This document shows positions 3,311 through 45,900 of a stretch of 45,900 nucleotides of DNA, one piece after another (position 1 is the stretch's first letter; each line of letters opens with the position of its first letter). Position numbers and translations under genes: made by a program. The notes beneath the pieces were generated by a model. The model ran no database searches, was not told the DNA's origin, and saw only the letters and a list, made by a program, of their open reading frames with translations. Source of the DNA: Bacteroidota bacterium (GTDB lineage Bacteria > Bacteroidota > Bacteroidia > UKL13-3); NCBI GenBank assembly GCA_031375995.1, contig JANMIV010000180.1, positions 1 to 45,900 of the forward strand, in the 5' to 3' direction.

Positions 3311-3345
3311 TTTTAAACTCCTTCCTAAAATGGAGGAGTTTAAAA
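3311..3345 (+). terminator. Strong AT-rich hairpin downstream of the 1..3225 gene; possible terminator or regulatory stem
   Basis: Arm 3311-3324 (ttttaaactccttc) pairs with 3332-3345 (ggaggagtttaaaa) over 14 bp including one G.T. The loop is 3325-3331. Only a short T stretch follows (tggctttt), so a terminator function is not certain. Confidence 0.35.
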
Positions 3346-3383
3346 TGGCTTTTAAGAAGAATATTTTATCAATATACATTAAA

Positions 3384-25997: not shown

Positions 25998-26049
25998 CGA
26001 AAGATTAAGAAAGTTAGGGAGTAAAAGTTTTTAGGAATAAAAGTAAGCA

Positions 26050-26696: not shown

Positions 26697-26941
26697 AATT
26701 ACCTAATTATAGTAGTATATAATTAAATAATTATGTACTTTTGCACTCATATAATTACCTAATTATTTAATTACGTAATTATGTAAATCAAACAACTATT
26801 TTTTCAATTTTATAATTACGTAATTACGTAATTATGTAATTACGAATTGTTTTTAATTTATTAAAAAAATAAATTTTTTGAAACTTACATTCTGTAATTA
26901 CGTAATTACGTAATTATATAATTACATAATTACGTAATTAT
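26697..26941. repeat. Centromere-like/operator repeats (parC-like): 19 copies of the 8-bp unit NTAATTAN in five clusters directly upstream of parA
   Basis: The clusters are 26697-26720 (3 units), 26729-26744 (2), 26751-26782 (4), 26812-26843 (4) and 26894-26941 (6: gtaattac gtaattac gtaattat ataattac ataattac gtaattat). Adjacent units form the perfect palindrome TAATTACGTAATTA. The last unit contains the first two bases of the parA ATG (26940). Confidence 0.7.
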
Positions 26942-27590: not shown

Positions 27591-27625
27591 AAAACTAATT
27601 TATCAATCCAAAAAATAATAAAATT

Positions 27626-28024
27626 ATGGCTAAAAAATTTGAATTAGGCAAGACATTAGGTAATCCAACACCGTCTTTTAGTGTAGAAAATATTGAAGAA
27701 ATGACTAAAAAAATTCACGATAAGGAAAAAATAATGCCTATTATAGAACAAAAAAAAGCTCCGAAAAAGGAAAAAATAGCAAAAATAAAGCCTGTAATAG
27801 AACTAAAATCAACTGTAAAAGAAGATAAAATCGTCTCGCCTGTATCAGTAGAATCTGCAAAACGTGGTCGTAAACCTAATCCACCAGCATCAGATGAGCG
27901 CATGATACGGGTATCTGTGGACTTACCCGAAAGCGTTTTTATAAAATTAAAAACCAAAGTGATACAAGATAGGACAGATATGAAAACATTTGTCTGGCGT
28001 TTGGTAGAAACAACTTTACAATAA
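27626..28024 (+). CDS. Small partition/centromere-binding protein candidate (ParG/CopG-like ribbon-helix-helix at the C-terminus, K-rich disordered N-terminus)
   Basis: It lies immediately downstream of parA with a 35-nt gap. The C-terminal 'RMIRVSVDLPESVFIKLKTKVIQDRTDMKTFVWRLVETTL' has the strand-helix-helix pattern of RHH proteins. The basic 'KRGRKPNP' tail precedes it. Confidence 0.6.
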   Translation: MAKKFELGKTLGNPTPSFSVENIEEMTKKIHDKEKIMPIIEQKKAPKKEKIAKIKPVIELKSTVKEDKIVSPVSVESAKRGRKPNPPASDERMIRVSVDLPESVFIKLKTKVIQDRTDMKTFVWRLVETTLQ

Positions 28025-29218: not shown

Positions 29219-32200
29219 ATGAAAAATAATTACATTTTAAACAAAATAACAGCTATCCCAAAGGGAATGATTGCATTATGGAGCGTTGCTTTTTTGCTTT
29301 TATTTTCATTTGTGGCAATAGCAAAAAGCTACCTCAATGCAGGTACTACCACCGATATTGCAGATAGCTTCACACTCGCTCTGTTCGCAGGGCTTTTGTT
29401 GTTGGTTATTATACCAACTATCAAACACCTTTCTCATTTAGTCAGTATCCGCAAAGCGGTGTTGCTGACGATGGTCATGGCAGCGTGTTTGGGGAATGCT
29501 TCAAAGATTTATGCACAAGCTGTTGATGCAGCACAAGCTGTTCAGATATGCAATGGTATTTGGCCCGAGCCTTCTGCTACTGCCACAATAGGAACGAATG
29601 ACTTACCTTCTGCAACGAGTAAAGGTTGCCTTGTAACAGGAGAGATTGGCTCTAACTGGTACTATGTAAAAGTAACAACAAGCGGCAAGATGGCTTTTAA
29701 AGTTGATGGTATCACGAGTACTGGCGCAATGGCAGATATTGATGGTGCAGTTTGGGGACCTTTTACTTCGGTCGCTGCTGGTGCTACTGCTATTAGGTCA
29801 GTAGCAGGACTTGCACCTGCAAGATGTAACTATTCGGCTGGTAAAGGTTTTACCTTAACAAATTCAACTACTGCGACATCAGTAGGAGCAGGAACACTCC
29901 TATTTCCGACGTCTCGTAATGTTAAGTCAATGGATGTTCTCGCAGGAGAATATTATTTGATATATATAGATAACTTTGCCGCTGGTACAGCTAACGGAGC
30001 AGTTTCAATTTCAATAGATTTTACAAGCGAAAATATAGCTGCTTATGAGTGTCCAGCAATGCCCACGACTTGCGGTCCTTTATGTAGTTCAGCTACTTGC
30101 CCTGTAAGTGATTTGGGTGTTAAGGCAGCAGCAGGCGTACAGCCTTCAGGAACTTTTACTGCACTTCAAAAAGCTAATTATACTGCTACGCCTTTTAAAG
30201 CAGGTGACGGAACATTTACGCAATGCTACACATTAAACTCAGGAGCGCATGGAACATTAGGTATCGTGCAAACTATCTTAGTACGTGGTACAGATGCTAA
30301 TGTGGATAATATTCCTGATGGACTTTCTGCAATAGCCTCCTCGAGAATGGCGACACTTACTTTGGCCTCCAATGCTTGTGGAACGGCAATACCTCCCACA
30401 ACTGCTAATGGAGGCAATAGCGGAACACTTAATCCTGAATGGACAGGGCTTACGCCTAATACCAATTATGTGCTTTGTATCGCTACAACGATGCCCGCAG
30501 CTGGTGCTACGGTTATCAACTATCGACAAAGTGCATTAGATGTTTATCACTGGGCTCCTCCATTCAGTGGACTTGCTCCTGGTTGTACTTCAGTAGCTCC
30601 AACAGTTTGGATAAAAGCTAATCAGGGTATAAGTACCGCAACACAGGGCGCACAAGTGACGTCTTGGACAAATTTAGGTAGTGTAGGTGGAAATGTAACA
30701 GGTGGAACAGGTTCTGGTACAAGTTCAATCGCTAATCAGACGACAAGTCCTACTTTTGATGAAAAAACATTTAATTTTAATCCTTCTGTATTCGCAAATG
30801 CAACATCTGGTATGGGTATGCTAAATGCCTTACCTGCTAGTCCTACCAAATGGGTAGTTTATTACGTTAATAAATTGGGCGATATTACGACTTGGAAATC
30901 TCATGTTTCCTTTTCGGCTGCTACTACTTTATCTCAAACAGTAGGTATTGGCGTGGCTCAGGAAAACTCTTTGATGAGTGATAATGCTGCTCCGTATATT
31001 TGGCAAGGCGCAAATGCTGGTGTTACTAATCCAATTTCTTACACCCTTGACAAGCCATATATTACAGGATGGCAATGGGCAAGTGCGGGTACAGGTGTAA
31101 CCAATAGCATCAATGGTCGCGCTGGTAATACAGGTGCGGCACTTTCTGCCAATAATCTTAGAACTTTTATTTTAACAGCTGATCCTGATGGTGGTCCAGA
31201 AGATGGTGGTCGTAGTGGTGGTACATACTATGCAGAAGCGATGGTATTTCCCAGTACAATTTCTGCTGCTGAACATCAAAGAGTACAATCTTATTTGGCT
31301 ATCAAATATGGTATTACCTTAGACCAAACCGTGGCTACGAATTACCTTTCGGGTGATGGCTCAGTGGTATGGAATGTCACTACAAATACAGGTTTTAATA
31401 ACAATATAATAGGCATTGGAAAAGACGATTGTCAAGGTCTAAATCAAAAACAATCAAAGTCAGCAAATGGAGGTTTTCAACCAGTAATCTCTACAACAGG
31501 TTTTGCAGCAACAAATGCAACAAACGCAACAGATTTAACTGGCAGTAAGTCATTTGAAATATCTGGCTCTGATGCAGGTGCTACAAGCTTTGGAGCATCT
31601 TATGCCTTCGCTGGTATGACACACCGCATTACCCGTATCTGGAAAATCCAAGAAACAGGTACAGTAGGTACAGTAAAAGTAGCGATAGAAAAAACAGAGT
31701 TTTCAGGAAATGCTACAAATATTAATTTATTACGCAGTTTAGATGCGACGTTCGACAACAGCGATACCAAAATAGTAATGGTTTCTGAGACTATTGGTGG
31801 TGTTGAGTATTACACCGCTACGATTGATTTTACAAACGGCGATTACTATACTTTTGGCGCATACTTAACAGTGCCAGGTTGTGTAGCAGCGGACTTGAAA
31901 ACTTGGTATAAAGCCAATGATTTTGCAACATCAGCAACATCAATAAGCCAATGGAATGATGCTGTGAATGGTTTTCATGCTAAACAAACAGTGGTTGCGA
32001 ATCAACCTCTTTATCAAGCGGCAAGTGCAGCAAACAACTTTAATCCTACACTTAAATTTGATGGTACAAGTGATCACTTAGAATATACAGCAAGCCGTTT
32101 TATGAGCACTACAAGCTCTGGCTCTTTGTTTGGTTCCGGTACAAATGAACTCAATGCAGGATACGAAAATTTTGCTGATTTGGGTATCGATAATCCTCAC

Positions 32201-35200
32201 ATGGGTACATTGGTAAATGAGCAAATTATGTGGATGAACGGCTCTGCTCCTGTGCGTATTGACCACCCTACAAAATTAACAGCCAATAAAGTACACCAAT
32301 TGGGTTATTATTGGAATGGTGGTGCCAATGCAGGTAGTGGGTTACGTTTAGATGGAACAGATTTTTACGATGCTACAACAGATGCAACTCTTGTTGGTAA
32401 TGGTGCGCCATCTGATGGTCAATTTTCTATCGGAGGTTATGGTGCAGTAGAGAACTGGACTGGTAATATTTCTGAGCTATTTTTATATGGAAGAAATTTA
32501 ACGACACAAGAAAAAGAGCGTGTGGAAACGTATTTGGCTATCAAATATGGTACTACTTTGGCACACGATTATTTGGCAGGAGACAATACAAAAATTTGGG
32601 ATAAAACAGCAAATACAGCTTACCACAACAATGTTTTTGGTATTGGTCGTGATGATTGTCAAGGTTTGAGCCAAAAACAATCTAATGCTACAAATGGTGG
32701 TTTCCAACCAATTATTTCAACAATAGGTTTTGCAGGTACAAACGCTACAAATACAGTGGTATTGGATGACAAATCTTTTGAAATGTCTGGCTCTGATGCA
32801 GCAGTAGCAAGTTTCGGTACTGCATTTGTCATTAGCGGTATGAATAACCGAATGACACGTGTTTGGAAAATTCAAGAAACAGGTATAGCAGGTACAGTAA
32901 AAGTAGCGGTTGCTAAAAGTGATTTTGGTGGTATTAATCATCACTTAATCCGCAGTACAGACGCTTCTATTGCAACAACAGATGAGTTATTACCAATGAC
33001 TGTGGAAACAATCGGTGGTGTAGAATACTTAACGGCAACGATTGATTTTGCGAATGGAGATTATTATACGTTTGGAGCAATGTTAGTTGGTCCAGGTGGT
33101 GTTGTGAATACAGATTTTTGGGTAAAATCTGATGATGCAGGTACAATTGGTACAGCATGGAAAGACCACTCTAAGTTTGGCAACGCAATTGAAGCAGTTG
33201 GTGCTTGGTCATTGTCTGCGGCTGATGCTGCACACAACTTTAACCCCTATACAACTGGTTTTAGTACTACAAAATATTTCAAAGATAATAATACGTCACT
33301 GACCGCAGATGATAGTTATGGCGTACAAACACGTACACCATTCTCTGTATTTTCGGCAGTAAAACCTTCGAGTGGTTCGGGTTCAGGTCGTATTATTGGT
33401 ATAGATAATGATGCACTTTATGCAGCAGAACCAGGTTTTTCTCTCTCTGCTGGCAAACCATATTTTTATAAATATTGGGAAACTGTTACAAGTGGAACAC
33501 ATACAAGTGTTGTAACAGGTGGTCAAAATACGGTTATTTCTTACAATGCGACACAAAATGCTGTAAATGATGCGACCATGCGTATTGGTAAAGATGGTAC
33601 TTACCAAAACTTTAACCACGTAGGGCATTGGCATAACTTAGGCGATGACTTGGTATTGGGTTATGGTACTTGGGATTTGAATGGAGCGTTTCCAGGTGAC
33701 ATCATGGAAGCAATTTGGTACAAACGTACTTTAACACAAAATGAGCAAGACCGTGTTAATTCTTACTTAGCAATCAAAAATGGTACAACCTTAGCGATTG
33801 ATTATTTGTCTTCTAATAGCACTATCATTTGGAATAAAACAGCTAATAGTGCTTTCCATAACAACGTATTTGGTATTGGTCGTGATGATGCTTCGGCATT
33901 ACACCAAAGACAATCAAAATCAACAAACGCTACTGGAAAAATAACACTTGGTGTTGATGATCAAATAGCAGCAACGAATATAGCACATACAGGCGGAGTA
34001 GCAGTTGATGCTAACTTCTTAATGGTTGGCGACAATGGTTTGGCAGGTGTGACTACACTTGTGCCAGGTGGTGCTTGTACGCCAGCAGGACCTGACAAGG
34101 GAACAAATAGAATTTGGAAATTTGTAGAAACGGGTACAGTAGAAAGTGTTAAAGTAAGTACTGATTTATCGCCTGACTTTAACGGAGCAAGCACACAAGT
34201 ATTTATGCAAGTTTCAACTGATGCTGCATTTACAGGCGTTATTGCCAATATTCCTGCAAGATTTAATAGTACTTCGGGACAATTTGAAACGAATTACGAC
34301 TTTACTGGTACGCAATATATTCGTTACATTGGTGTACAAACACCTCCTGCAAACGCTTGTATTGGTGGAAGTAAAGATTTGAATTGGTTGTCATTTGCAC
34401 CATTCAATTGGTGGTATTGGGGTACTCGTTCTAAGTCTTACAACTTAGGCGACGGCTTAAATGCGCAAGTATCAATTGACGACAGCAGCAACAAGATTTT
34501 ATATGGTAATACACCAGCATACAATCCACCATTGACACCAAATCCAACAACAGGATATTATCCAGTGAACTACGGTAATCACTTGTATATTCCTCGTTAC
34601 GATGGTAATCCAACTTCGACCATTACTACTAAAATTAAATTAGTAGATGCGACGAATGTAGCAATGCCAGCAAATGGTGTAAGTTTCAAAATCAAAGACA
34701 TCGACGGTTGGTGGTGGGGCAAGGATAACGTGAAAGTCTATGGAAAATTAGGCGGTTCAATCGTTAATCCTAAATTATCGACCAACAAACTTTATACAAA
34801 CGTTACCATTACACAACCAAATCAAGGCAAAGGTTCTATCTATCCTTGGGATTGGACAGTGTTAGGCGATATGTATGTGAACTTTGATAGCCCAGTAGAT
34901 GAGATTTATGTAGAACACACAAAAGATAACTTATTTAGTTTCAAAGTGTTCAATGACATCGCTATTGGTGGTTTGGATATACAATGTAAAGCACCAGAAC
35001 CAGAAGTGGTTACGCCAGACAATGTATATTTATTCAAAGAAGTTTCTCCTAAAACAGCTCGTGCAGGAGAAGCATTTACCTACAAATTTACATTTAAAAA
35101 CTTCAACTGTACAGACAAAGTTGTGAGTTTTACAGATGCTTTACCTTCGGGTATGGTATGGAAAGATAGTACATTGGCAACGACCATGACTATCGGTTCT

Positions 35201-38200
35201 ACAAGTGCTTATGGTGGGTCAGCAAACTTGAATTTGACAAGTTTAGTTGTTCCAACGGGTACATCTTATATGTATGCAGAAGCAGTAGCTTCTACAACAG
35301 GGGTACAAAATAATCAGGCTTCATTTACAGTCAATGGCAATACTTATCAATCTGATGAGCCAAGTATCGCAGGTGCAGCAAATGCTACACCAGTAACGAT
35401 TATTGCAGCACCTCAGGTAGCGAATTTGACATTGACAAAATCAGTTAATAAAACATCTTCGCCTCAGAATGGCACAATAGAATACACATTATCTGTTAAA
35501 AACAATGGTGCAGCAACGGTTAATGCGCAAGTACAGGACTTCTTAGAAGGTGACGCAACTTACACAGCTGATCCATTGGTGTTCACACCAGCTTCTGCAA
35601 GTACAGGTACAGTCGTGAATACTTATGCAACAACAGGTACGCTTGATGTCAGAGATTTAGCTGTGGCAGCAGGTGCAACTATTACAATTAAGGTAAAAGC
35701 AAAATTAGGCACTAACCCAGTTGTAAACGATACCTTGTCAAATAATTTTACTGCAAAAACAGGTTTAGGTGCTGATGCAGAATTTTATTCTTACAAACAA
35801 TTTACATCTAATAAAGTAAAAACATTGGTACAAAACCTACCAAGCCTTGCAGGTACAGTCTTCAATGATGGTGGTGCAGGTGGAGGAACGCCAGGCAATT
35901 GTACCAAAGATGGTACAGAAGGCGCAACAGGTTTACCAACGGGACTTTATGCAAAATTAATCGCTTCGGGTGCAACAGTTGTAGCACAAGCAGTAGCCGT
36001 AAATTCGGGAACATATTCATTTACAGCCGTAAATGATGGTGCTTATACTGTAATTTTAGATGATAATACTACTTTATCTGACATTACTTCTACGCTTCCT
36101 TCGGGTTGGGCAGGTACAAGCAGCCTTACAGGTAACTCTGCAAGTGGTTTATTTACACCAACTTTGACCTTCTGTATCAGCAATGTACCAGCACAAGTTA
36201 CAATCGTAGCAGGAGCAGGTACGGTATTTAATGACAATGGTGCAGGTGGTGGTACAGCCAATAACTGTACAAAAGATGGTACTGAAACCGCAGCAGGTAT
36301 TCCTTCGGGCTTATTTGCAAAATTGATAAAAGCAGGAACAGTTCTAAAAGTAGAGCCAATTGATGCCAATGGTGGATTTACAATGACTGCCGTTTCAGTA
36401 GGAACTGGTTATTCAATGATTATTGACAACAACAATTCTTATACCGATGCAATCTCTAACATACCAGCCAATTGGACAGCCAACACTTGGACAGGAGATG
36501 TAACGGCAACAACGCCATTTACAAATCCAGCATTGAAATTATGTATGTATTACAGCTTACCAACGTTCACAGTAACAGCGGCAGCAAATACAGTATTACA
36601 TGATGATGGTGCAGGTGGTGGAACAGCAGGTAACTGTACCTTAGATGGTGCAGAAAGCGCAACAGGTCTTCCTTCTCCGCTTTTTGCAAAATTAATCCAA
36701 TCAGGTGCAGTCGTACAAGCAGCAGCCGTAGCAAGTGGAGGTTTTACGTTTAGTAATATTCCTGATGGTTCATACACGATTATTTTAGACAATAATAATA
36801 CTTTAACAGATGCTACAACTACACTTCCTTCGGGTTGGACAGGTACAACTTCATGGGCAGGTACACTCACAAGTGGAGTAGCAAGTCCAGCATTGAAATT
36901 CTGTATTTACAGTCCGCCTCCTGGTCCATGTTTCGGAACGACAAGTGTCGTAGGTGCAATGCCAGCAGGTGCTTACGTCACAGCAGGTAATGTAAATGCA
37001 GTATCAAATTCAGTAGATTTTGGCGCATCAGCAACGGGTATTTTAGGTACAGACCGTAATCCTGGTAGTGTAGGTGCATACTTATTCAAAGCAGCAGCAA
37101 TGCCTTTGAATGCAAGTAATGCCAACTTTATTGATGGTTATGTGAGAAAAACAGGTGGAGCAAACGTAACTTTCCCTGTTGGAGATAATGGTTCTTATCG
37201 TCCAGCGATTGTAAATTGGGCGGCAGCTTGTCCATCACAAATGGAAGTTGCTTATTTTGGCGCAGACCCTAATATTGGTGTAACATCTAAGTTAGCAGCA
37301 GGAGGCGGAGGTTTTTTCCCAACTGCACCACTAGGCGGGCCATTCCCAACCAATCAGCGTGTGACCAATTTATTCTCTGTTTCTGACAAAGAATATTGGG
37401 ATATCAATGGTACAGATCCAGCAGAAATTACTTTGACTTGGAATGCAGCAAGTAACATTTCAGGATTATCAACCTCGAATGTCAATAATTTAAGTATTGC
37501 AGGTTGGAACGCAACGACAGGCAAATGGGAGCGTATCGCTTCTACTATTATTGCAGGTTCTAATCTTACAAGTGGTTCAATCAAAACAGATGCAACACTT
37601 GTTCCAAATACGTATAACGTTTATACTTTTGCAGGAACAATCATTCCTAATATCGCAACAGTTAAAACAGCACCAGCTACAATTTCTCAATTTGTTCCAT
37701 TTAATTATTCATTTACAATTAAAAACAATGGAACAGTAGCAACAACAGCCAATACGATTGTTCGTGATACGTTGAAAAATGGTTTGAAATATATCAGCTA
37801 CTCAGGTGCATGGACTTGTGCTTTTTTAGGAACAACAGCCTCAGGAGATGATGTAGTAGAATGTACTATTTATGCTACCTTAGCACCAAGTACAAGTGTT
37901 TTAGCAGGGCTTCGTGTCAATCCTACATTGGGAGGCGCTATCTCAAATACTTCTCGCACAAGTGGCGGTGGTATGACTGGTGGTCCTTACAAATCAAGTA
38001 CCAACGAGTCTTCGGCAGGTACACCTCAAAATCCAAATGCAGGAGCAGCGACTACTTCAAATGTAACGCCGATACCTAATTTGGTAACAACAAAAGTAGC
38101 ACCAACAACGCCAGTTTCACAAGGTACGAAATTTGACTATACTATTACTGTAAATAACACGGGTAGTGTAGCTACGTCAGGTGCAATTACAGTAAGAGAT

Positions 38201-41200
38201 ACCTTGAAAAATGGCTTGAAATACGTTTCTTATACAGGTACGGATTGGACTTGTACAAAAACAGGTATTGATTTAAGTGGAAACGACGTAGTGGTTTGTA
38301 CTTCAAATATATCACTTGTGGCAAATACAGGTACATCAGGTGTTATTTTGACGGTTTTACCAACACAAGCAACCAATATCAGTAACATGACTTGGACAAG
38401 CGGTGGCGGTATGCCAGGTGGTCCTTACAAATCAGGTCCTACAACAAGTACAGCAGGTAGTGTTCAAAACCCAACAGACGGTGATCCGACAGGTGTGGGC
38501 AATAACCCTGGTGTATTGCCAGTAGTTCCAAAACCTATTTTGGTAACAACCAAAGTTGGTCCAGGTACGCCTATTACACAGTTCCAAGATTTTGATTACA
38601 TCTTTAATGTTACCAACAATGGTGCAGCAAATACAACAGGTGCAATTACAATTTTAGATACGCTACGCAACGGCTTAATCTACCAATCAACAGGTAGTGC
38701 AGGTTGGAGTTGTACAGTAACAGGTGCTGATGCCAATGGCAATCAAATCTTAGAATGTATCACTAGTAACGTTATCAATGCCAACGGAGATAATGATATT
38801 TTAAATCTAACAGTAAAAGCAACAAAAGCAGCGGCACTCTCTAATATAGCTTATGTTAACGGTGGCGGAATTCCAGGTGGTCCATATCCTACAAGTCCAG
38901 TTTCGACGACAGCAGGAAATGCACTTAACCCAACGCCTAACGCACTAGTGCCAACGCCTAATACAGCAAGTCCGATACCAAGTATCACGACTGTAAAAGC
39001 GGCATTGTCATCAACCATTGAGCAATTTATGCCTTTTGATTATAAATTTGATTTAGAAAACAAAGGTTCAGCAGCAACAAGTGGTTTATTGACAGTAAGA
39101 GATACGTTGAAAAGTGGTTTAAAATATATGTCTATGACAGCAGGTTCTCCTGATTGGACGTGTTCGTTGGTAGGTCAAGATTTAAGTGGAAACGACGTTG
39201 TTCAATGTCAAACTTCTACTCCGATTGCAGCATACAATCCACTCACTTTGACAGGCGGTACAAGCACTTATACTATTCGTGTAAAACCAACATTGTCAGG
39301 GAGTATCACTAATCTTGCTTGGGTAAATGGCGGCGGTATGCCAAACGGGCCTTACAAAACAGGTGGAACACCAGGAACAGCAGGAAGCCCTATCAATTCA
39401 GGTGGTGGCTCTCCAACTTCTCCAACAGTAGTAACACCAGTACCAATTTTAAAAACGGCTAAGGTAGCACCAAGTGTAGCAGTACAACAGTTTATTCCTT
39501 TTGCTTATACATTTAATGTCTTCAACGACGGTGCAGCAGCAACAGCAGGCGTAATTACGATAAAAGATACTTTGAAAAACGGTTTAGTATTCGTTTCAGG
39601 CGGTAGCGCATCATGGACTTGTGCCGTGACAGGTACTGACATTAGCGGAAACCAAATCGTAGAATGTACTTCTTCAACTGCTATTGTACCAACAGCAACA
39701 TCTTCTTTCCCGCTTAATGTAAAATCTACAACAGGTGGCACAACAAGTAATATTGCTTATGTAAATGGCGGCGGTATGCCAGGCGGTCCTTATAGAACAG
39801 CACCAACAACTATGGGTAGTGGAAATCCTACTAACCCAATGGGCGGAGGTTCAACTACAAACAACGTAACAGCAGTACCCAATCTGATAACCGTAAAAGA
39901 AGCGCCTGCAACAGCTATCACTCAGTTTGTTCCATTTGATTATACCATCAAAGTAACAAATTCGGGCGGCTCTAATTCGGGTGGTACAGTTACCGTAAGA
40001 GATACTTTAAAAACAGGTTTAAAATACAATGGTTTTGCAGGTACAGATTGGACTTGTGCAAAAACAGGTATTGATTTATACGGCAACGATGTTGTGGTTT
40101 GCACTTACTCAAACGCAATTGCAGTAAATCAAACTGTTTTTTACACATTGAATGTAAAACCTACTATGGCTACAAATATAACCAATATGACTTGGACAAA
40201 CGGTGGTGGTATGCCAGGCGGTCCTTACAAGTCAGGTTCTACACCAAGCACAGCAGGTAGCATCAATAACCCAACAGGTGGTGGTCCAACAGGCACAAGC
40301 CCGACCACATCAGTAGTACCAGTACCAGATTTACAAACGGCTAAAATAGTTGGCGCAGGTCCATTTAACCAAAACCAACCATTTACTTATAACTTCCAAA
40401 TCACGAATGCAGGTGGAGTTTCTACCTCAGGTTTAGTGACTATTTTAGATACCTTGAAAAACGGATTAAAATACGTTTCGGGTGGTAATACAGATTGGAC
40501 TTGTGTAAAAACAGGTGTTGATGCAGCAGGTAATGACATCGTAAGATGTACGAGTTTAGAGGTAATTGCAACAGGCAATACCACTTCGTTCCCATTACAA
40601 GTCAATCCAACACAAGCAAGTAATACTGCTAACTTGGCATGGACAAGCGGTGGCGGTATGCCAGGCGGTCCTTACAAATCAGGTACAACGGCAGCAACAG
40701 CGGCAGGACCTTCTAACCCAGGCGGCGGTACACCAACTGCACCAACGCCAGTAGGCCCAGGTTTGCCAGATGTGATTTTATTAATTTCACAACCAAGCCC
40801 AGTATTAACAGAAGGATTACAAAGTGTTGTTCAATTTACAGTTACCAACCAAGGAAATGGTGCAGCAACAGGACCAATCAATGTAAATATTACATTGCCT
40901 ACGGAATTGTCAGCTCCTCCAACTTTCACAAGTGGTGCTTGGACTTGTACAACAGCAGGTGTCAATATTTCGTGTTCTTCACAGAATACAGCAACTATCG
41001 CAATCAATACTTCTGTACAATTTGATGTACCAGTAGTACCAGCAGCAGGTTCTCTTGGTAAAATATTGAGTATATCGGGTGCTATTCCAGCAGTAACCAA
41101 TGAGAATATTGTCAATAACAATGGTGCAACAATGACGGCAAACAACCCTGTTCAAACAGGTACAAGACCAGATTTATTGACAGTTATTGGTACAATTCCT

Positions 41201-44200
41201 ACATTGACAGAAGGCACTACATCATTGATACCAGTTACCGTTTCTAATATTGGAAATGGTGCAGCAGCGGGTGTATTGACATTCTCTACGAACCTTCCAA
41301 ACGGATTGTCTGCACCAGCTACCTTCACTCAAAATGGTTGGACTTGTAACACTTCGGGTCAAACCGTAAGTTGTAGCAACCCTAATACAGCAGGAGTAGC
41401 ACCAAATGCAGCAGTTCCATTTGACATTCCAGTAACGCCAGCAGTTGGTTCAGCAGGAACGACACCAACCGTAACAGGTTTAGTAAATCAAGTTTTAAAT
41501 GAATTAGTAACTAATAACAATACAGGGGCTTCAACGGCAGCGCAATCAATACAACCAGCAAATCGTCCAGATGTGCAAACTGTTATTGGTCAGCCTTCAA
41601 CGCCTTTGGTAGAAGGTTCTCCTTCTAATATTCCTGTAATGTTGAATAACATAGGTACAGCACCAGCAACAGGCGCATTGACTTTCAGTACCAATTTGCC
41701 AAATGGCATTACCGCACCATTAACTTTTACAGAAAATGGTTGGACTTGTAATACTTCGGGTCAAACAGTAAGTTGTTCTAATCCTAATACAGCAGGACTT
41801 CCTGCAACAACAGGTACAACGAACTTCAATATTCCGATTACACCAAGTGTTGGTACAGCAGGTCAAACACCTACACTTACGGGTGCAGCATCGCCAGTAG
41901 TAAATGAAACGGCAACGACGAACAATACAACGTCAATGACACCAACAGGCGCAATTGCTCCATTGGCAAGACCAGATTTGACTACTACAATCGGACAACC
42001 AGCACCAGATTTGACAGAAGGCGTTACTTCTAATATTCCAGTAACACTTGCGAATATTGGTAATGCACCAGTAACAGGACCACTGACGTTCAGTATGTCT
42101 TTGCCAAATGGAATGACGACACCACCAACCTTTACAAACAACGGTTGGACGTGTTCTACTTCGGGTCAATCAGTGAATTGTACGAACCCTAATGCAGCAG
42201 GACTTCCTGCAACAACAGGTACAACAACATTTACTATTCCAGTTACACCAGCAGCAGGAACGGCAGGTCAAACACCTACACTGACAGGTAATTCAGCACC
42301 AGCACCGAACGAAACTTCGACAGCTAATAACAGTGGCTCAATGACACCTACAAATCCAGTAGTAGCAATGGCTCGTCCAGATATCTTAACGACAATCGGA
42401 CAACCAGCACCAGGATTTACAGAAGGTACAACATCGCTTGTTCCTGTAACTCTTGCAAATATTGGAAATGGTCTAGCGACGGGTCCTTTATCATTCAGCA
42501 CAACATTGCCGAATGGTTTGACTTCGCCTTTGACTTTTACCAATAATGGTTGGACTTGTTCTACTACGGGTCAAACAGTGAATTGTACAAATCCCAATAC
42601 AACAGGACTTCCTGCAACAACAGGTACGACAATGTTTGAAATACCTGTAACACCATTGGTTGGTTCGGCAGGTCAAACACCAAGTATTTCGGGTAATACA
42701 CCACCAGTAACGAATGAAACGACCACTACAAATAATAGTGGTTCAATGACACCAACAACACCAATTGTAGCAATGGCTCGTCCAGATGTACAAACAGTAA
42801 TCGGAGCAATACCAACTTTGACAGAAGGTACGACTTCTAATATTCCTGTGACGCTCAATAATATTGGAAATGCAGCAGCAACAGGGACATTGTCATTCAG
42901 TACAACATTGCCAAATGGTCTTTCAACAGCACCAACCTTTACAAACAACGGTTGGACTTGTTCTACTTCGGGTCAAACTGTAAATTGTTCTACGCCTAAT
43001 GCAGCAGGACTTCCTGCAACAACAGGTACAACAACGTTTAATTTACCAGTAACACCAGCAGCAGGATCAGCAGGTCAAACACCAACAGTATCAGGTACAG
43101 TAGCAGCAGCAATCAATGAAACGGTAACAACAAACAACACCGCTTCATCAACCGCAACAAGCGCAATTGTTGCCGCAGCAAGACCAGATATGACAACGAC
43201 AATTGGCACACCAAGCCCAGTATTGACAGAAGGCGTGCAATCAAACATTCCAATTACATTGGCTAATATCGGTAATGCACCAGCAACGGGACCATTGACC
43301 TTTACTTCAATGTTACCAAATGGCTTGACGACACCTTCAACCTTTACAAACAATGGTTGGACTTGTACGACTTCGGCACAGACAGTAAGTTGTTCTAATC
43401 CTAATACAGCAGGACTTCCTGCAACAACAGGTACAACAACGTTCAATTTACCAGTAACGCCAAGCGCAGGAACAGCAGGTCAAACACCTACGCTTTCAGG
43501 AACGTCGCCATCTGTACCAGGTGAAACAACAACAGGTAACAACGGAGGTTCTCTCACACTACCTGCCATTGTAGCGGCTGTAAAACCAGACTTAGCTTTA
43601 AGTTTCGGTTCGCCAAGCCCAGCATTAGCAGAAACAGTGCTTTCGAGTATTCCAGTTACTGTTGCAAACATTGGAACAGCAACGGCAACAGGTCAAGTGG
43701 TCGTAACCATCAGTATTCCAAACAACACAACAAGCCTTGCGTCTTACGTGACAAATGGTTGGACTTGTAATGCTTCGGGAACAACACTGACTTGTGCAAC
43801 ACCTAATTTTGCAGGAATTGCATCAGCAGCATCTACTACATTTGACATTAGGCTTACGCCAAATGCAGGTACAGCAGGGCAGTATGTATTGCTAAACGGT
43901 AACGTATCAACAGTTGCAGGCGAAACGAATACAGTTAATAATACCAATGTAACGATTGTTCCAACGCCAATTGCAGCACCGCCAGCTTACGCTTTAAATG
44001 TAAAAATGATGTTACAAGGTGCAATGTTAGGCACAACGGACGGTTTAATGCGTGATAATTTACGTACTCAAAACCTTATTCCATTGACTTCGCCTTATGA
44101 TGTTAGCTTACATACTCGCTTCACGAAAGTAGCAGAAAGTACAACTGCAACAACAATTGCGGCAGTATTGAGTGCAAACGCAGGTACAAGCGATGCTATC

Positions 44201-44806
44201 GTAGATTGGGTATTCATCGAATTACGTAATAGTGCTTCTCCTTCAACAGTAGTGAGAACTATTTCAGCACTCGTTCAACGTGATGGAGATGTAGTAGCAG
44301 CCGACGGACAACCATTGCTTATCAGTGGTATAAACGCAGGTAGTTATTTTGTAGCAATCAAACACCGCAACCACTTGGGCGCAATGACTGCATCAACAGT
44401 AGCATTAAGTACAGCGCAAACAGCAATCGTTGATTTTACAACGATGACCAATGCACAGGTATTCAATAATGCAGGTTATGACGGTTACGAGCGTGCAACG
44501 ATTGGTGCAGTAAAAGCACTTTGGGCAGGTAACTGCAACTCAGATACTCGTGCAAAGTACGACGGCGCAAGCACTGACCGACAAATGATTGCAACCAATG
44601 TTTTAGGTCATACAGTAAATACAAGCGGTTCTTATGTATTCAACAACGCTATTGGGTATTTCTCAGGCGACGTGAATATGGACGGAAAAGCGAAATACGA
44701 TGGTTCAGGTAATGATCGTATCTTAATCCAACAACTCATTCAGACATTTGGATTAAATGCCACATTATCAAATAATTACAATAATTTCTTAGAGCAACTT
44801 CCATAA
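29219..44806 (+). CDS. Giant (5195 aa) secreted multi-array repeat protein with LamG-like supermodules, CnaB-like repeats, two DUF11/CARDB-like arrays and a C-terminal dockerin-like domain; no recognisable T9SS CTD
   Basis: The N-terminus has three hydrophobic segments, the third resembling a signal peptide (AVLLTMVMAACLGNASKIYA|QA). The N-terminal domain 'CNGIWPE...GSNWYYVKVTTSGKMAFKVDG...DIDGAVWGPF...YLIYIDNFA' resembles the N-terminal module of many Bacteroidota giant surface proteins. The internal arrays are listed as separate repeat features. The C-terminal ~270 aa are homologous to the end of the 1..3225 product. Confidence 0.95.
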   Translation: MKNNYILNKITAIPKGMIALWSVAFLLLFSFVAIAKSYLNAGTTTDIADSFTLALFAGLLLLVIIPTIKHLSHLVSIRKAVLLTMVMAACLGNASKIYAQAVDAAQAVQICNGIWPEPSATATIGTNDLPSATSKGCLVTGEIGSNWYYVKVTTSGKMAFKVDGITSTGAMADIDGAVWGPFTSVAAGATAIRSVAGLAPARCNYSAGKGFTLTNSTTATSVGAGTLLFPTSRNVKSMDVLAGEYYLIYIDNFAAGTANGAVSISIDFTSENIAAYECPAMPTTCGPLCSSATCPVSDLGVKAAAGVQPSGTFTALQKANYTATPFKAGDGTFTQCYTLNSGAHGTLGIVQTILVRGTDANVDNIPDGLSAIASSRMATLTLASNACGTAIPPTTANGGNSGTLNPEWTGLTPNTNYVLCIATTMPAAGATVINYRQSALDVYHWAPPFSGLAPGCTSVAPTVWIKANQGISTATQGAQVTSWTNLGSVGGNVTGGTGSGTSSIANQTTSPTFDEKTFNFNPSVFANATSGMGMLNALPASPTKWVVYYVNKLGDITTWKSHVSFSAATTLSQTVGIGVAQENSLMSDNAAPYIWQGANAGVTNPISYTLDKPYITGWQWASAGTGVTNSINGRAGNTGAALSANNLRTFILTADPDGGPEDGGRSGGTYYAEAMVFPSTISAAEHQRVQSYLAIKYGITLDQTVATNYLSGDGSVVWNVTTNTGFNNNIIGIGKDDCQGLNQKQSKSANGGFQPVISTTGFAATNATNATDLTGSKSFEISGSDAGATSFGASYAFAGMTHRITRIWKIQETGTVGTVKVAIEKTEFSGNATNINLLRSLDATFDNSDTKIVMVSETIGGVEYYTATIDFTNGDYYTFGAYLTVPGCVAADLKTWYKANDFATSATSISQWNDAVNGFHAKQTVVANQPLYQAASAANNFNPTLKFDGTSDHLEYTASRFMSTTSSGSLFGSGTNELNAGYENFADLGIDNPHMGTLVNEQIMWMNGSAPVRIDHPTKLTANKVHQLGYYWNGGANAGSGLRLDGTDFYDATTDATLVGNGAPSDGQFSIGGYGAVENWTGNISELFLYGRNLTTQEKERVETYLAIKYGTTLAHDYLAGDNTKIWDKTANTAYHNNVFGIGRDDCQGLSQKQSNATNGGFQPIISTIGFAGTNATNTVVLDDKSFEMSGSDAAVASFGTAFVISGMNNRMTRVWKIQETGIAGTVKVAVAKSDFGGINHHLIRSTDASIATTDELLPMTVETIGGVEYLTATIDFANGDYYTFGAMLVGPGGVVNTDFWVKSDDAGTIGTAWKDHSKFGNAIEAVGAWSLSAADAAHNFNPYTTGFSTTKYFKDNNTSLTADDSYGVQTRTPFSVFSAVKPSSGSGSGRIIGIDNDALYAAEPGFSLSAGKPYFYKYWETVTSGTHTSVVTGGQNTVISYNATQNAVNDATMRIGKDGTYQNFNHVGHWHNLGDDLVLGYGTWDLNGAFPGDIMEAIWYKRTLTQNEQDRVNSYLAIKNGTTLAIDYLSSNSTIIWNKTANSAFHNNVFGIGRDDASALHQRQSKSTNATGKITLGVDDQIAATNIAHTGGVAVDANFLMVGDNGLAGVTTLVPGGACTPAGPDKGTNRIWKFVETGTVESVKVSTDLSPDFNGASTQVFMQVSTDAAFTGVIANIPARFNSTSGQFETNYDFTGTQYIRYIGVQTPPANACIGGSKDLNWLSFAPFNWWYWGTRSKSYNLGDGLNAQVSIDDSSNKILYGNTPAYNPPLTPNPTTGYYPVNYGNHLYIPRYDGNPTSTITTKIKLVDATNVAMPANGVSFKIKDIDGWWWGKDNVKVYGKLGGSIVNPKLSTNKLYTNVTITQPNQGKGSIYPWDWTVLGDMYVNFDSPVDEIYVEHTKDNLFSFKVFNDIAIGGLDIQCKAPEPEVVTPDNVYLFKEVSPKTARAGEAFTYKFTFKNFNCTDKVVSFTDALPSGMVWKDSTLATTMTIGSTSAYGGSANLNLTSLVVPTGTSYMYAEAVASTTGVQNNQASFTVNGNTYQSDEPSIAGAANATPVTIIAAPQVANLTLTKSVNKTSSPQNGTIEYTLSVKNNGAATVNAQVQDFLEGDATYTADPLVFTPASASTGTVVNTYATTGTLDVRDLAVAAGATITIKVKAKLGTNPVVNDTLSNNFTAKTGLGADAEFYSYKQFTSNKVKTLVQNLPSLAGTVFNDGGAGGGTPGNCTKDGTEGATGLPTGLYAKLIASGATVVAQAVAVNSGTYSFTAVNDGAYTVILDDNTTLSDITSTLPSGWAGTSSLTGNSASGLFTPTLTFCISNVPAQVTIVAGAGTVFNDNGAGGGTANNCTKDGTETAAGIPSGLFAKLIKAGTVLKVEPIDANGGFTMTAVSVGTGYSMIIDNNNSYTDAISNIPANWTANTWTGDVTATTPFTNPALKLCMYYSLPTFTVTAAANTVLHDDGAGGGTAGNCTLDGAESATGLPSPLFAKLIQSGAVVQAAAVASGGFTFSNIPDGSYTIILDNNNTLTDATTTLPSGWTGTTSWAGTLTSGVASPALKFCIYSPPPGPCFGTTSVVGAMPAGAYVTAGNVNAVSNSVDFGASATGILGTDRNPGSVGAYLFKAAAMPLNASNANFIDGYVRKTGGANVTFPVGDNGSYRPAIVNWAAACPSQMEVAYFGADPNIGVTSKLAAGGGGFFPTAPLGGPFPTNQRVTNLFSVSDKEYWDINGTDPAEITLTWNAASNISGLSTSNVNNLSIAGWNATTGKWERIASTIIAGSNLTSGSIKTDATLVPNTYNVYTFAGTIIPNIATVKTAPATISQFVPFNYSFTIKNNGTVATTANTIVRDTLKNGLKYISYSGAWTCAFLGTTASGDDVVECTIYATLAPSTSVLAGLRVNPTLGGAISNTSRTSGGGMTGGPYKSSTNESSAGTPQNPNAGAATTSNVTPIPNLVTTKVAPTTPVSQGTKFDYTITVNNTGSVATSGAITVRDTLKNGLKYVSYTGTDWTCTKTGIDLSGNDVVVCTSNISLVANTGTSGVILTVLPTQATNISNMTWTSGGGMPGGPYKSGPTTSTAGSVQNPTDGDPTGVGNNPGVLPVVPKPILVTTKVGPGTPITQFQDFDYIFNVTNNGAANTTGAITILDTLRNGLIYQSTGSAGWSCTVTGADANGNQILECITSNVINANGDNDILNLTVKATKAAALSNIAYVNGGGIPGGPYPTSPVSTTAGNALNPTPNALVPTPNTASPIPSITTVKAALSSTIEQFMPFDYKFDLENKGSAATSGLLTVRDTLKSGLKYMSMTAGSPDWTCSLVGQDLSGNDVVQCQTSTPIAAYNPLTLTGGTSTYTIRVKPTLSGSITNLAWVNGGGMPNGPYKTGGTPGTAGSPINSGGGSPTSPTVVTPVPILKTAKVAPSVAVQQFIPFAYTFNVFNDGAAATAGVITIKDTLKNGLVFVSGGSASWTCAVTGTDISGNQIVECTSSTAIVPTATSSFPLNVKSTTGGTTSNIAYVNGGGMPGGPYRTAPTTMGSGNPTNPMGGGSTTNNVTAVPNLITVKEAPATAITQFVPFDYTIKVTNSGGSNSGGTVTVRDTLKTGLKYNGFAGTDWTCAKTGIDLYGNDVVVCTYSNAIAVNQTVFYTLNVKPTMATNITNMTWTNGGGMPGGPYKSGSTPSTAGSINNPTGGGPTGTSPTTSVVPVPDLQTAKIVGAGPFNQNQPFTYNFQITNAGGVSTSGLVTILDTLKNGLKYVSGGNTDWTCVKTGVDAAGNDIVRCTSLEVIATGNTTSFPLQVNPTQASNTANLAWTSGGGMPGGPYKSGTTAATAAGPSNPGGGTPTAPTPVGPGLPDVILLISQPSPVLTEGLQSVVQFTVTNQGNGAATGPINVNITLPTELSAPPTFTSGAWTCTTAGVNISCSSQNTATIAINTSVQFDVPVVPAAGSLGKILSISGAIPAVTNENIVNNNGATMTANNPVQTGTRPDLLTVIGTIPTLTEGTTSLIPVTVSNIGNGAAAGVLTFSTNLPNGLSAPATFTQNGWTCNTSGQTVSCSNPNTAGVAPNAAVPFDIPVTPAVGSAGTTPTVTGLVNQVLNELVTNNNTGASTAAQSIQPANRPDVQTVIGQPSTPLVEGSPSNIPVMLNNIGTAPATGALTFSTNLPNGITAPLTFTENGWTCNTSGQTVSCSNPNTAGLPATTGTTNFNIPITPSVGTAGQTPTLTGAASPVVNETATTNNTTSMTPTGAIAPLARPDLTTTIGQPAPDLTEGVTSNIPVTLANIGNAPVTGPLTFSMSLPNGMTTPPTFTNNGWTCSTSGQSVNCTNPNAAGLPATTGTTTFTIPVTPAAGTAGQTPTLTGNSAPAPNETSTANNSGSMTPTNPVVAMARPDILTTIGQPAPGFTEGTTSLVPVTLANIGNGLATGPLSFSTTLPNGLTSPLTFTNNGWTCSTTGQTVNCTNPNTTGLPATTGTTMFEIPVTPLVGSAGQTPSISGNTPPVTNETTTTNNSGSMTPTTPIVAMARPDVQTVIGAIPTLTEGTTSNIPVTLNNIGNAAATGTLSFSTTLPNGLSTAPTFTNNGWTCSTSGQTVNCSTPNAAGLPATTGTTTFNLPVTPAAGSAGQTPTVSGTVAAAINETVTTNNTASSTATSAIVAAARPDMTTTIGTPSPVLTEGVQSNIPITLANIGNAPATGPLTFTSMLPNGLTTPSTFTNNGWTCTTSAQTVSCSNPNTAGLPATTGTTTFNLPVTPSAGTAGQTPTLSGTSPSVPGETTTGNNGGSLTLPAIVAAVKPDLALSFGSPSPALAETVLSSIPVTVANIGTATATGQVVVTISIPNNTTSLASYVTNGWTCNASGTTLTCATPNFAGIASAASTTFDIRLTPNAGTAGQYVLLNGNVSTVAGETNTVNNTNVTIVPTPIAAPPAYALNVKMMLQGAMLGTTDGLMRDNLRTQNLIPLTSPYDVSLHTRFTKVAESTTATTIAAVLSANAGTSDAIVDWVFIELRNSASPSTVVRTISALVQRDGDVVAADGQPLLISGINAGSYFVAIKHRNHLGAMTASTVALSTAQTAIVDFTTMTNAQVFNNAGYDGYERATIGAVKALWAGNCNSDTRAKYDGASTDRQMIATNVLGHTVNTSGSYVFNNAIGYFSGDVNMDGKAKYDGSGNDRILIQQLIQTFGLNATLSNNYNNFLEQLP
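30572..34360 (+). repeat. Three tandem ~410-aa supermodules (LamG/concanavalin-like jelly-roll candidate plus a following beta module)
   Basis: The recurrent landmarks are 'NFNP(S/T/Y)', '(E)(H/K/Q)(Q/E)RV(Q/E/N)(S/T)YLAIK(Y/N)G(I/T)TL' at nt 31293, 32531 and 33764, 'N(N)(I/V)(I/F)GIG(K/R)DD...L.Q(K/R)QSKS', 'R(I/M)(T)R(I/V)WKIQETG..GTVKVA' and 'GGVEY.TATIDF.NGDYYTFGA'. Module starts lie near 30572, 31865 and 33083. Confidence 0.7.
35849..36915 (+). repeat. Three ~122-aa tandem repeats, CnaB/SdrD-B-like candidates
   Basis: The unit is 'AGTVFND.GAGGGT..NCTKDGTE.A.G(L/I)P.GL(Y/F)AKLI..G.V.......GGFT........Y..I(L/I)D.N....D....(L/I)P..W.(G/A).......G.......P.L.(F/L)C(I/M)Y', with starts at 35849, 36215 and 36584. 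Confidence 0.7.
37652..40765 (+). repeat. Seven ~148-aa DUF11-like repeats (type A)
   Basis: Each unit is '(V/T)(K)(T/V)AP......QF.PF.Y.F.(I/V).N.G..AT.G.ITVRDTLKNGLKY(V/I)S......WTC...G.D..GN(D/Q)(V/I)V.CT......N....GGGMPGGPYK(S/T)G.....AG...NP.GG'. Unit openers are IATVKTAP, LVTTKVAP, LVTTKVGP, ITTVKAAL, ILKTAKVAP, LITVKEAP and DLQTAKIV. Confidence 0.8.
40766..43975 (+). repeat. Eight ~134-aa DUF11/CARDB-like repeats (type B), the same family as the repeats in 1..3225 and 44951..45900
   Basis: The unit is 'PD(L/V/I/M).T.IG.P.P.LTEG..S.IPVT..NIGN..A.G.L.FS..LPNG(L/M).(A/T)P.TFT.NGWTC.TSGQTV.C.NPN.AGLPATTGTT.F.(I/L)PVTP..G(T/S)AGQTPT(L/V).G......NE...(T/N)NN'. Openers are PDVILLIS, PDLLTVIG, PDVQTVIG, PDLTTTIG, PDILTTIG, PDVQTVIG, PDMTTTIG and PDLALSFG. 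Confidence 0.85.
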
Positions 44807-44950: not shown

Positions 44951-45900
44951 ATGAAAAAAATAACTCTACATCAATTAATACTTTGGGTAATGTTATTATT
45001 TATGGGAAATTCATTGTTTGCACAACAGCAAGTTGATTTTACTCTAAAATATAATACAACCACAAGTGAATATGAAGTATATGGAAAACCAACTCAAAGT
45101 GGTTCGTTTTCCGTTGGCGGTGGTTCTCAATTAACCATAATGACCCCTGCATCTTATGTAGATGCACCTATTACTGTGACCAGCGTAGCAGGCGGGCCTT
45201 GGGCAGATAATACGCAAATGTACAATCCAATTCCTTCATTAGGAGTTGATTTTCATAGTATTACGACCAATGGTACATTTCCAATTTTCAATTTTACGGC
45301 AAATCAAGAACAACTGATTTACAAATTTACCTTAACGGGTGGTTGTGTTGCAGGTGTTCGTTTGTACCGAAATGCTGACGAAGGCACAACACCACGTGAT
45401 CCAGACAGTAACGTAGCAGGTATGGCAGGTAATGACTTTGAAAATTACTTTGCGCCAGTTTCTACGGGCAATCAAGAGTATCGTGCCAATTACAACAACA
45501 CGGGTATTTTATGCGCTCCACCAGCAGCAGCAGATTTGATTACGAGTATTGGACAACCTTCGCCTTCTTTGGTAGCAGGACAGCCAAGTACAGTTCCAGT
45601 AACGGTAACGAATATTGGTACTGCACCTACAACAGGTGTAATCACAACGACAATCACATTGCCAACAGGCACAAGTGCACCAGCGGGTCCTTTTGTTACA
45701 AACGGTAACACTTGTACAACAAGCGGTCAAACTGTAACTTGTACTAATCCAGGACCTTTATCAACGACAAGTCCTACAAATAGTACATTGATTAATATAC
45801 CAGTAACGGCTGCACCAAGCACCGTTGGTACAAATCCTGGACCATTTGCGGCAATGCCAAGCACACCAGGAGAAACAACTACGGCTAATAATCCAGCTGC
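44951..45900 (+). CDS. 5' portion of a giant secreted repeat protein (runs off the right edge): signal peptide, divergent copy of the N-module, and first DUF11/CARDB-like repeat
   Basis: This ORF is not in the track because it has no stop in the window. I translated it by hand from ATG 44951 to nt 45900 and found no stop. It starts MKKITLHQLILWVMLLFMGNSLFA|QQQVDFTLKYNTTTSEYEVYGKP... From nt 45531 it reads 'ADLITSIGQPSPSLVAGQPSTVPVTVTNIGTAPTTGVITTTITLPTGTSAPAGPFVTNGNTCTTSGQTVTCTNPGPL', the same repeat family as nt 1-2430. The upstream in-frame ATG at 44912 hits a stop after 6 codons. Confidence 0.85.
   Translation, partial: MKKITLHQLILWVMLLFMGNSLFAQQQVDFTLKYNTTTSEYEVYGKPTQSGSFSVGGGSQLTIMTPASYVDAPITVTSVAGGPWADNTQMYNPIPSLGVDFHSITTNGTFPIFNFTANQEQLIYKFTLTGGCVAGVRLYRNADEGTTPRDPDSNVAGMAGNDFENYFAPVSTGNQEYRANYNNTGILCAPPAAADLITSIGQPSPSLVAGQPSTVPVTVTNIGTAPTTGVITTTITLPTGTSAPAGPFVTNGNTCTTSGQTVTCTNPGPLSTTSPTNSTLINIPVTAAPSTVGTNPGPFAAMPSTPGETTTANNPA

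Follow-up and report, generated by a model that had tools for sequence, protein, structure and literature searches.

Two giant genes in a 45,900-nucleotide stretch of DNA from a Bacteroidota bacterium (lineage UKL13-3; contig JANMIV010000180.1 of assembly GCA_031375995.1; the whole stretch is called the window below) encode proteins that end in the same C-terminal domain of about 270 residues, for which we use the label CTD-X. We find that CTD-X is a very large uncatalogued domain family, which on sequence comparison appears to be homologous to dockerin, indirectly, by way of intermediates within the family. Among paralogous proteins, its place at the C-terminal end is taken by known sorting signals. 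We therefore propose, tentatively, that CTD-X acts as a Ca-dependent, dockerin-type docking module for the C-terminal end of the protein that carries it (its cargo). The two giant genes are the following:

1..3225 (open reading frame [ORF] 10..3225, open at the 5' end of the window), + strand: 5'-truncated gene with CARDB/DUF11 repeats and a CTD-X end
29219..44806, + strand: gene for a 5195-aa product with a signal peptide, DUF11/CARDB repeats and CTD-X

The last ~270 residues of the two products align with 39% identity (E = 5e-43), in agreement with the initial annotation of this DNA, which had given both proteins one and the same C-terminal domain. The landmarks that it quoted, namely V(K)(V/M)(F/M)LQGA, MRD(D/N)LR, AIVDWV(L/F)IELR, ALVQRDGDVV, HRNHLG, ALWAGN and both loop-helix strings, are found in both translations. 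Its domain start in the 5195-aa protein, position 43990, lies one base out of frame, and we use the in-frame extent instead. The two copies, and the parts of the one in the 5195-aa protein, are as follows (residue numbers refer to CTD-X):

43991..44803, + strand: CTD-X of the 5195-aa protein, 271 aa
43991..44197, + strand: N-terminal wrap, residues 1-69, with LQGA, MRDxLR and (I/L)P...PY motifs and short helices (DSSP of the model)
44198..44521, + strand: beta-sandwich core, residues 70-177 (model strands 70-177), with DWVxxELR, QRDGDVV and HRNHLG motifs
44531..44605, + strand: loop-helix unit 1, N181-x-N183-x-D185 ... KY-x-G ... D196, then helix 196-205
44669..44743, + strand: loop-helix unit 2, D227-x-N229-x-D231-G ... 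KY-x-G ... D242, then helix 242-251
44792..44803, + strand: terminal EQLP motif (in the family: E 85%/Q 13%, Q 98%, L/I 91%, P 93%)
2431..3222, + strand: second, more divergent CTD-X copy, at the end of the ORF that stops at 3225

The second copy has an additional insertion in loop 1, and its terminus reads ...ITENH instead of the (E/Q)Q(L/I)P of the family.

AlphaFold2, run on the 271-aa domain with a 57-sequence alignment, predicts one compact fold (predicted local distance difference test score [pLDDT] 96.6, predicted template modelling score [pTM] 0.92). In this model, the wrap (residues 1-69) is followed by the beta-sandwich (70-177) and by two loop-helix units (178-271), with a short last strand at 267. 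The helices of the two units (196-205 and 242-251) each begin at a conserved Asp. When the model was compared with the PDB by Foldseek, no match fell below E = 1e-3. The top matches, in which the whole target was aligned, were the type II X-module+dockerin chains of cellulosomal scaffoldins (4u3s_B, 4wi0_B and 2b59_B), which share their domain order with CTD-X, that is, a sandwich and then a dockerin. For 4u3s_B, the match has E = 1.3e-2, a probability of 0.90 and a template modelling (TM) score on the target of 0.44. Many further matches were to transthyretin-like or carboxypeptidase-regulatory-like sandwiches.

In the wrap, L24, P31 and P35 are invariant, and M20, D22, R25 and Y36 are conserved at 90% or more. 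In the sandwich, the invariant residues are D72, W73, G99, G106, H125, R126, H128 and G130. Across 361 distinct homologues, the putative ligand positions of the two loops are likewise highly conserved: in loop 1, N/D 99%, N 62%, D/N 96% and terminal D 99%, and in loop 2, D 100%, N/D 96%, D/N 97%, G 89% and terminal D/E 100%. Lack of conservation in the loops, one part of what the initial annotation had named as refuting its reading, is thus not seen. Within the 5195-aa protein, the two loop-helix units are duplicates of one another (36% identical across a gap-free stretch of 42 residues, E = 1e-8), so that the two tandem loop-plus-helix segments of a dockerin can be recognized in the duplication, in the helices that start at conserved Asp residues and in the conserved loops.

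The path from CTD-X to dockerin leads through the homologue P0131 (1313 aa, from an ENA metagenome), which contains five CTD-X modules, each matching the CTD-X family hidden Markov model (HMM) with E values of 1e-22 to 1e-28. Right after the sandwich, at the homologous position, P0131 has a significant Pfam Dockerin_1 (PF00404) match (E = 6e-8, 33.2 bits against a gathering score of 22.9). The family HMM pairs the window-type loop 'ALWAGNxNxD..VKYxGxxND' with 'MWSGDINEDGLVDHT----D' of P0131, and 'GYxxGDxNMDG' with 'EYLSADITMDG'. From this alignment, it follows that the loops of the window copies correspond to dockerin F-hand loops into which four residues, KYxG, are inserted. The insertion shifts the last acidic ligand from position 12, where it lies in P0131 and in cellulosomal dockerins, to position 16. 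Profile comparison by hhalign is consistent with this correspondence. Specifically, the C-terminal 100 aa matched a set made of the five P0131 segments and the PDB-verified dockerins of CelS and CelD with 96.6% probability (E = 6e-10), a test that is partly circular because the set includes the P0131 segments, and matched CelS and CelD alone with 62% probability. By analogy with these dockerins, the loops of CTD-X would bind Ca2+.

The family is large. A word-indexed search returned 1203 homologues at E<=1e-3, and a profile search of 1.84 billion cluster representatives returned 13,267 proteins at E<=1e-3, to the weakest of which flanking profile columns may contribute, and 4,753 at E<=1e-30. 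In GTDB genomes, more than 581 stretches encode CTD-X, and the locus-level counts given here cover the best 79 of these loci. Neither window copy matched any Pfam or NCBIfam model at E<=10, and no precomputed Pfam domain spans the CTD-X region among the matches listed. Named members among these matches are called 'hypothetical protein', save one 'hemagglutinin protein'. Sequence and profile searches of the PDB with the whole domain and with its C-terminal 100 aa gave chance matches only (LpxD, Candida pepsin). No description of CTD-X was found in the literature on T9SS (type IX secretion system) C-terminal domain (CTD) classes, on dockerins in connection with T9SS or Bacteroidota, or on non-cellulosomal dockerins. 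Among the parts of CTD-X, the transthyretin-like sandwich and the duplicated dockerin-type loop-helix are of known kinds. What is new is that the loops are stretched, that the fold is a fused composite, that the sandwich bears invariant motifs and that CTD-X is used as a C-terminal 'anchor' on giant Bacteroidota surface proteins.

The hosts are Bacteroidota at 76 of the 79 loci, with carriers among Saprospiraceae, Haliscomenobacter, Lewinella, Spirosomataceae (Runella, Spirosoma, Fibrella, Emticicia), Flavobacteriales and Chitinophagaceae. Two loci are binned as Chloroflexota and one as Pseudomonadota. The two Chloroflexota occurrences are contigs of metagenome-assembled genomes (MAGs), for which the taxonomy is a binning label. 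The Pseudomonadota locus (L062, 1-15503 of JBDKID010000021.1) has three tandem CTD-X genes and a fourth paralogue with an IPTL-CTERM end. Since this contig also carries surE-pcm, with a SurE 76-79% identical to that of Thiothrix, we regard the Thiothrix-like occurrence as real. Among the other carriers, Haliscomenobacter, Saprospiraceae, Runella and the MAGs binned as Caldilineaceae are likewise filamentous bacteria of sludge or freshwater, and this shared way of life suggests horizontal transfer of CTD-X within a common habitat.

CTD-X lies at the very end of nearly all proteins that carry it. In ~110 copies from the 79 loci, alignments that reach the domain end nearly always stop 0-3 residues before the stop codon, and where an alignment breaks off early, the same terminal motif (E/Q)Q(L/I)P is still present downstream. 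Complete ORFs have N-termini that, judged by eye, resemble signal peptides. The cargo includes DUF11, CARDB and cadherin-like giants as well as S8 peptidases, kinds of protein that are typically found at the cell surface. As for T9SS CTDs, an extreme C-terminal position is thus combined with an N-terminal Sec signal peptide, with P0121-P0124 and P0131 as exceptions. P0121-P0123 have two full copies each, and the EQL/QQVP motif of the first copy is consequently internal. P0124 (1083 aa) has three copies and an N-terminal S8 peptidase fragment. Together with P0131, it represents a distant subfamily with 3-5 internal modules of sandwich and canonical dockerin. The tail of P0131 shows a weak match, below the cut-off, to the T9SS type C (ChiA-like) model NF033708 (E = 1.5e-3). 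Stand-alone proteins of 283-297 aa, consisting of a signal peptide and CTD-X, are encoded by paired tandem genes on each of two metagenomic contigs that are not related to each other (L081, 824-2640; L082, 3-1934). On the former, the pair is flanked by ORFs whose tails, by eye, resemble T9SS type A CTDs. Two further ideas were set aside: a need for a free EQLP carboxylate at the C-terminus is unlikely, given that the motif is internal in the tandem copies of P0121 and P0122, and a type I secretion (T1SS/RTX-type) signal was rejected, since the proteins bear Sec signal peptides.

What relatives carry in the place of CTD-X is first seen in the window itself, where three further genes belong to the same set:

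3330..4220, + strand: 296-aa paralogue with a T9SS type A CTD (PF18962, TIGR04183)
4642..22818, + strand: 6058-aa SprB-like protein with a T9SS type B CTD (TIGR04131/PF13585)
44951..45900, + strand: start of a further giant gene, with a signal peptide and an 'FTLKYN..YEVY' N-terminal domain, running off the window end

Homology links the type A protein with repeats of the type B giant, and the N-terminal 142 aa of that giant with the N-terminus of the ORF that starts at 44951 (E = 5.5e-14). One set of homologous N-termini and passengers is therefore joined, in the window, to type A, type B or CTD-X ends. The 'FTLKYN..YEVY' domain lies in the window at 44951-45500 and, within the type B giant, at 4642-5070, and many CTD-X proteins (loci L001, L003, L004, L007-L009 and others) have it after their signal peptide. 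It matches no Pfam or NCBIfam model, the best hit being choice_anch_W at a non-significant E of 0.093, and it behaves like a 'choice-of-anchor' head domain.

The same pattern extends to the 79 loci, in which we compared the last 120 residues of 44 ORFs with passenger homology to CTD-X proteins against NCBIfam. These neighbours end in a T9SS type A CTD (18/44), a type B CTD (7/44), CVP-CTERM (2/44) or IPTL-CTERM (1/44, the paralogue on the Thiothrix-like contig). The CVP-CTERM ends (NF058574, a recently defined putative sorting domain; tail type ...CCPVQLCVPVAVKKRKK) are apparently in Runella loci (L009, 17706-19844, and probably L052), as assigned by list order. Because paralogues end in these known signals, CTD-X can be said to fill an 'anchor slot', and because it sits where its relatives carry a secretion or anchoring tag, it is probably another means of fixing proteins to the cell surface.

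These results bear on the suggestion of the initial annotation that the domain replaces a T9SS CTD on the two giants, that both giants lack CTDs of type A or B while the two neighbouring genes carry them, and that the export route of the giants is unexplained. The absence was confirmed: neither giant matches TIGR04183/PF18962 or TIGR04131/PF13585 at E<=10, and the same searches detect the type A end of 3330..4220. Nor do the window copies match the type C model NF033708 (ChiA-like) in the NCBIfam scan at E<=10, and since this model fires weakly on the P0131 tail, it is present in the library searched. In hhalign comparisons, CTD-X reached probabilities of 1.7-4.6% against 16 type A CTDs (Ig-like sandwiches of ~80 aa) picked by their [YFW]PNP motif, and below 1% against 8 motif-picked type B CTDs. 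No T9SS CTD structure is among the top 50 Foldseek PDB matches, and a PorP/SprF-like ORF, a common neighbour of type B CTD genes, occurs in 5 of the 79 loci and nowhere in the window. Replacement holds in one sense, in that paralogues with homologous passengers bear type A or type B ends, and fails in another, in that CTD-X is not tied to T9SS organisms. Whereas T9SS CTDs strictly track T9SS genes (PMC10202324), CTD-X is not confined to T9SS-bearing lineages, as it is present on the Thiothrix-like contig and on the two Chloroflexota-binned MAG contigs. Given the Thiothrix-like contig, the tandem and internal copies and the stand-alone secreted form, CTD-X is not simply a T9SS tag.

In the mechanism that we tentatively favour, CTD-X would be a self-contained binding module, probably stabilised by Ca2+. 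Its transthyretin-like sandwich, comparable to the cellulosomal X-module, is predicted to pack on the duplicated dockerin-type loop-helix pair, in which each putative Ca-loop is lengthened by the four residues KYxG. Placed last in giant adhesins and enzymes that are exported by Sec, CTD-X may dock their C-terminal end non-covalently to a conserved surface receptor, which could be a cohesin-like protein or an envelope glycan. It would thereby serve the task that T9SS type A/B CTDs or CVP-/IPTL-CTERM serve in the paralogues. The outer membrane would presumably be crossed in Bacteroidota by the T9SS, either directly or through an adaptor.

Several observations weigh against docking through a dockerin-type module. 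The initial annotation had likened the end of the domain to a pair of dockerin Ca-binding repeats, and this likeness holds for the conserved loops, the Dockerin_1 match of P0131, the hhalign comparison and the Foldseek matches. It does not extend to the window copies at the level of Pfam, where PF00404 gave no match at E<=10, nor to the length of the loop, which has 16 residues compared with the 12 of a canonical EF-hand-type loop (ligands at 1, 3, 5, 7 and 12). When 40 homologous C-terminal segments were scanned, Dockerin_1 was the sole Pfam family matched more than once, with three sub-threshold matches (best E = 0.073). The structural similarity to known chains is weak (E = 1.3e-2, TM 0.28-0.47, 12-15% identity). 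Modelled alone, the C-terminal 100 aa reach a pLDDT of 51.6, and the dockerin-like part is thus not an independent fold. The strongest conservation (DW, E.R, QRDGD, HRNH) falls in the sandwich. Finally, clustering of ~550 neighbour ORFs from the 79 loci brought up no conserved partner gene and no candidate receptor, only LuxR-type regulators (10 loci), the PorP/SprF-like genes (5 loci) and paralogous adhesins. In the proteins of the window, no cohesin domain was detected.

A less probable but serious alternative is that CTD-X faces outward as an adhesive or lectin-type module that binds something foreign, for instance a polysaccharide or another cell, with the dockerin-like part as a Ca2+ fold stabiliser only. 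An invariant polar cluster (D72 W73, E77, R79, Q96-D100, H125 R126 N127 H128) persists even in the distant subfamily with internal repeats, and the sandwich often has transthyretin-like or carboxypeptidase-regulatory-like structural neighbours. The stand-alone secreted forms in tandem pairs and the proteins with 2-5 copies suit a lectin-like binder as well as, or better than, they suit docking. In P0131, the five copies lie upstream of the weak type C-like tail, and CTD-X would therefore be passenger there, and not signal. The name 'hemagglutinin protein' of one homologue points in the same direction, but this annotation is lone and unexplained. A foreign ligand fits less well with the fact that CTD-X is nearly always the last domain and that, in the subfamily of the window, it takes the exact slot of sorting or anchoring signals among paralogues. 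We consider it highly unlikely that CTD-X merely caps long repeat proteins, or nucleates their folding, and has no part in specific binding or in sorting. The EQLP terminus, with its DSSP strand at residue 267, appears to close off the fold, and the lack of a partner gene in the 79 loci would be in line with a cap, but polar residues of surface type do not vary across thousands of clusters, and CTD-X is also found on short enzymes and stand-alone, where there is no repeat array to cap.

In two further readings, both unlikely, CTD-X would take part in export. In one of them, CTD-X would be a fourth class of T9SS CTD, read in Bacteroidota by the translocon or by a shuttle protein and taking cargo across the outer membrane. 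Its position at the C-terminus of signal-peptide-bearing, surface-type cargo, the predominance of Bacteroidota among the best loci and its substitution for type A/B CTDs in paralogues all agree with such a role. We know of no outer-membrane route in Bacteroidota other than the T9SS for non-lipoprotein giants of this kind, and direct or adaptor-mediated recognition of CTD-X is accordingly conceivable. In addition, atypical CTDs exist (type C/ChiA), and export by a type B CTD takes more than 200 residues (PMC10202324). What makes a fourth class improbable is that CTD-X resembles none of types A, B and C in sequence or profile (below 5% by hhalign for types A and B) and has no T9SS CTD among its structural matches, that it is three times as long as known CTDs with a sandwich that is not terminal, that it occurs beside surE-pcm on the Thiothrix-like contig and in the two Chloroflexota-binned MAGs, that internal, tandem and stand-alone copies exist, and that a PorP/SprF-like neighbour is present at so few loci. 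In the other, which we rate as hardly more probable, CTD-X would be a hitherto unrecognised, C-terminal surface-sorting class that crosses phyla. As a stretched X-dockerin, it would first enlist cargo for export across the outer membrane (in Bacteroidota via the T9SS or an adaptor) and then plug, in a Ca-dependent manner, into a dedicated receptor on the cell surface.

Whichever function applies, thousands of large surface proteins and secreted enzymes of environmental Bacteroidota end in CTD-X, which neither Pfam nor NCBIfam has a model for and of which no relative has been solved. Predictors of T9SS cargo that are built on type A, B and C CTDs will miss these proteins, and a curated CTD-X family model would bring an immediate gain in annotation. 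If CTD-X is a docking module, a receptor should exist, which would amount to a cohesin-dockerin-like surface assembly in Gram-negative bacteria. If it is a surface-sorting class, giant adhesins of Gram-negative environmental bacteria would be anchored in a cohesin-dockerin-like manner, and if it is a T9SS signal, the definition of the signals accepted by the translocon would have to be widened. In each case, CTD-X offers a testable handle on how giants without a known CTD reach the cell surface and keep to it.

The window looks like part of a plasmid of a Saprospiraceae-like bacterium. A plasmid-type backbone lies at 23697-28024, preceded by an oxygenase gene:

22971-23585: 2OG-Fe(II) oxygenase, prolyl-hydroxylase-like (PF13640), directly downstream of the gene for the 6058-aa SprB-like type B protein
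23697..24545: Bro-N protein
24591..25997, - strand: Rep3 initiator
26135-26238: 22-bp iteron-like direct repeats, x4.7
26684-26941: AT-rich repeats
26940..27590: ParA gene
27626..28024: small ORF with a faint ParB_N match

The top PLSDB match of the Rep3 initiator is from a plasmid of Haliscomenobacter hydrossis DSM 1100 (44% identity), and elsewhere this Rep protein was seen only on a single 15.5-kb Logan contig. No CTD-X homologue was found in the PLSDB plasmids. The 2OG-Fe(II) oxygenase may modify adhesins. Tandem repeats of 411 nt occupy positions 1-929, at the start of ORF 1..3225, and in-frame tandem repeats of 486 nt (x2.7, 5379-6670) and 405 nt (x4.6, 41660-43500) lie inside the type B giant and in the 5195-aa protein just upstream of CTD-X, respectively. 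Such long in-frame repeats are typical of fast-evolving adhesin stalks. The ~135-aa repeats of the ORF that starts at 44951 are 87-93% identical to those that open ORF 1..3225, and the two ORFs could belong to a single gene of a circular replicon in which the repeats have collapsed. A simple circular join of the window ends was rejected, because the repeats are not identical and the frames are off by one base.

Among known systems, the type II X-module plus dockerin (XDoc; 2B59, 4U3S, 4WI0) is similar to CTD-X in that a beta-sandwich is followed by a duplicated Ca-loop/helix at the C-terminus of a very large secreted protein. In cellulosomal scaffoldins, this C-terminal XDoc plugs into cell-surface cohesins and thereby anchors the scaffold. 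Unlike XDoc, CTD-X has an extra N-terminal wrap of ~65 residues and loops of 16 residues, not 12, its sandwich carries its own invariant DW/E.R/QRDGD/HRNH cluster, its hosts are mainly Gram-negative Bacteroidota, and no cohesin partner is known. With the type I dockerins of PF00404, CTD-X shares tandem D-x-N-x-D-G loops with an amphipathic helix after each, but it differs from them in the KYxG insertion and in a loop-helix part that does not model as an independent fold. The likeness to T9SS CTDs lies in the extreme C-terminal position on Sec-exported Bacteroidota proteins and in the swapping of CTD-X with them among paralogues, whereas T9SS CTDs have 55-100 aa and CTD-X, with ~270 aa, may also be internal, repeated or stand-alone. 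Finally, as in the NCBIfam 'choice-of-anchor' proteins, a shared N-terminal domain is joined to alternative ends, here type A, type B, CVP-CTERM, IPTL-CTERM or CTD-X, and, unlike the short sortase-type signals of such proteins, CTD-X is a folded domain of 270 aa.

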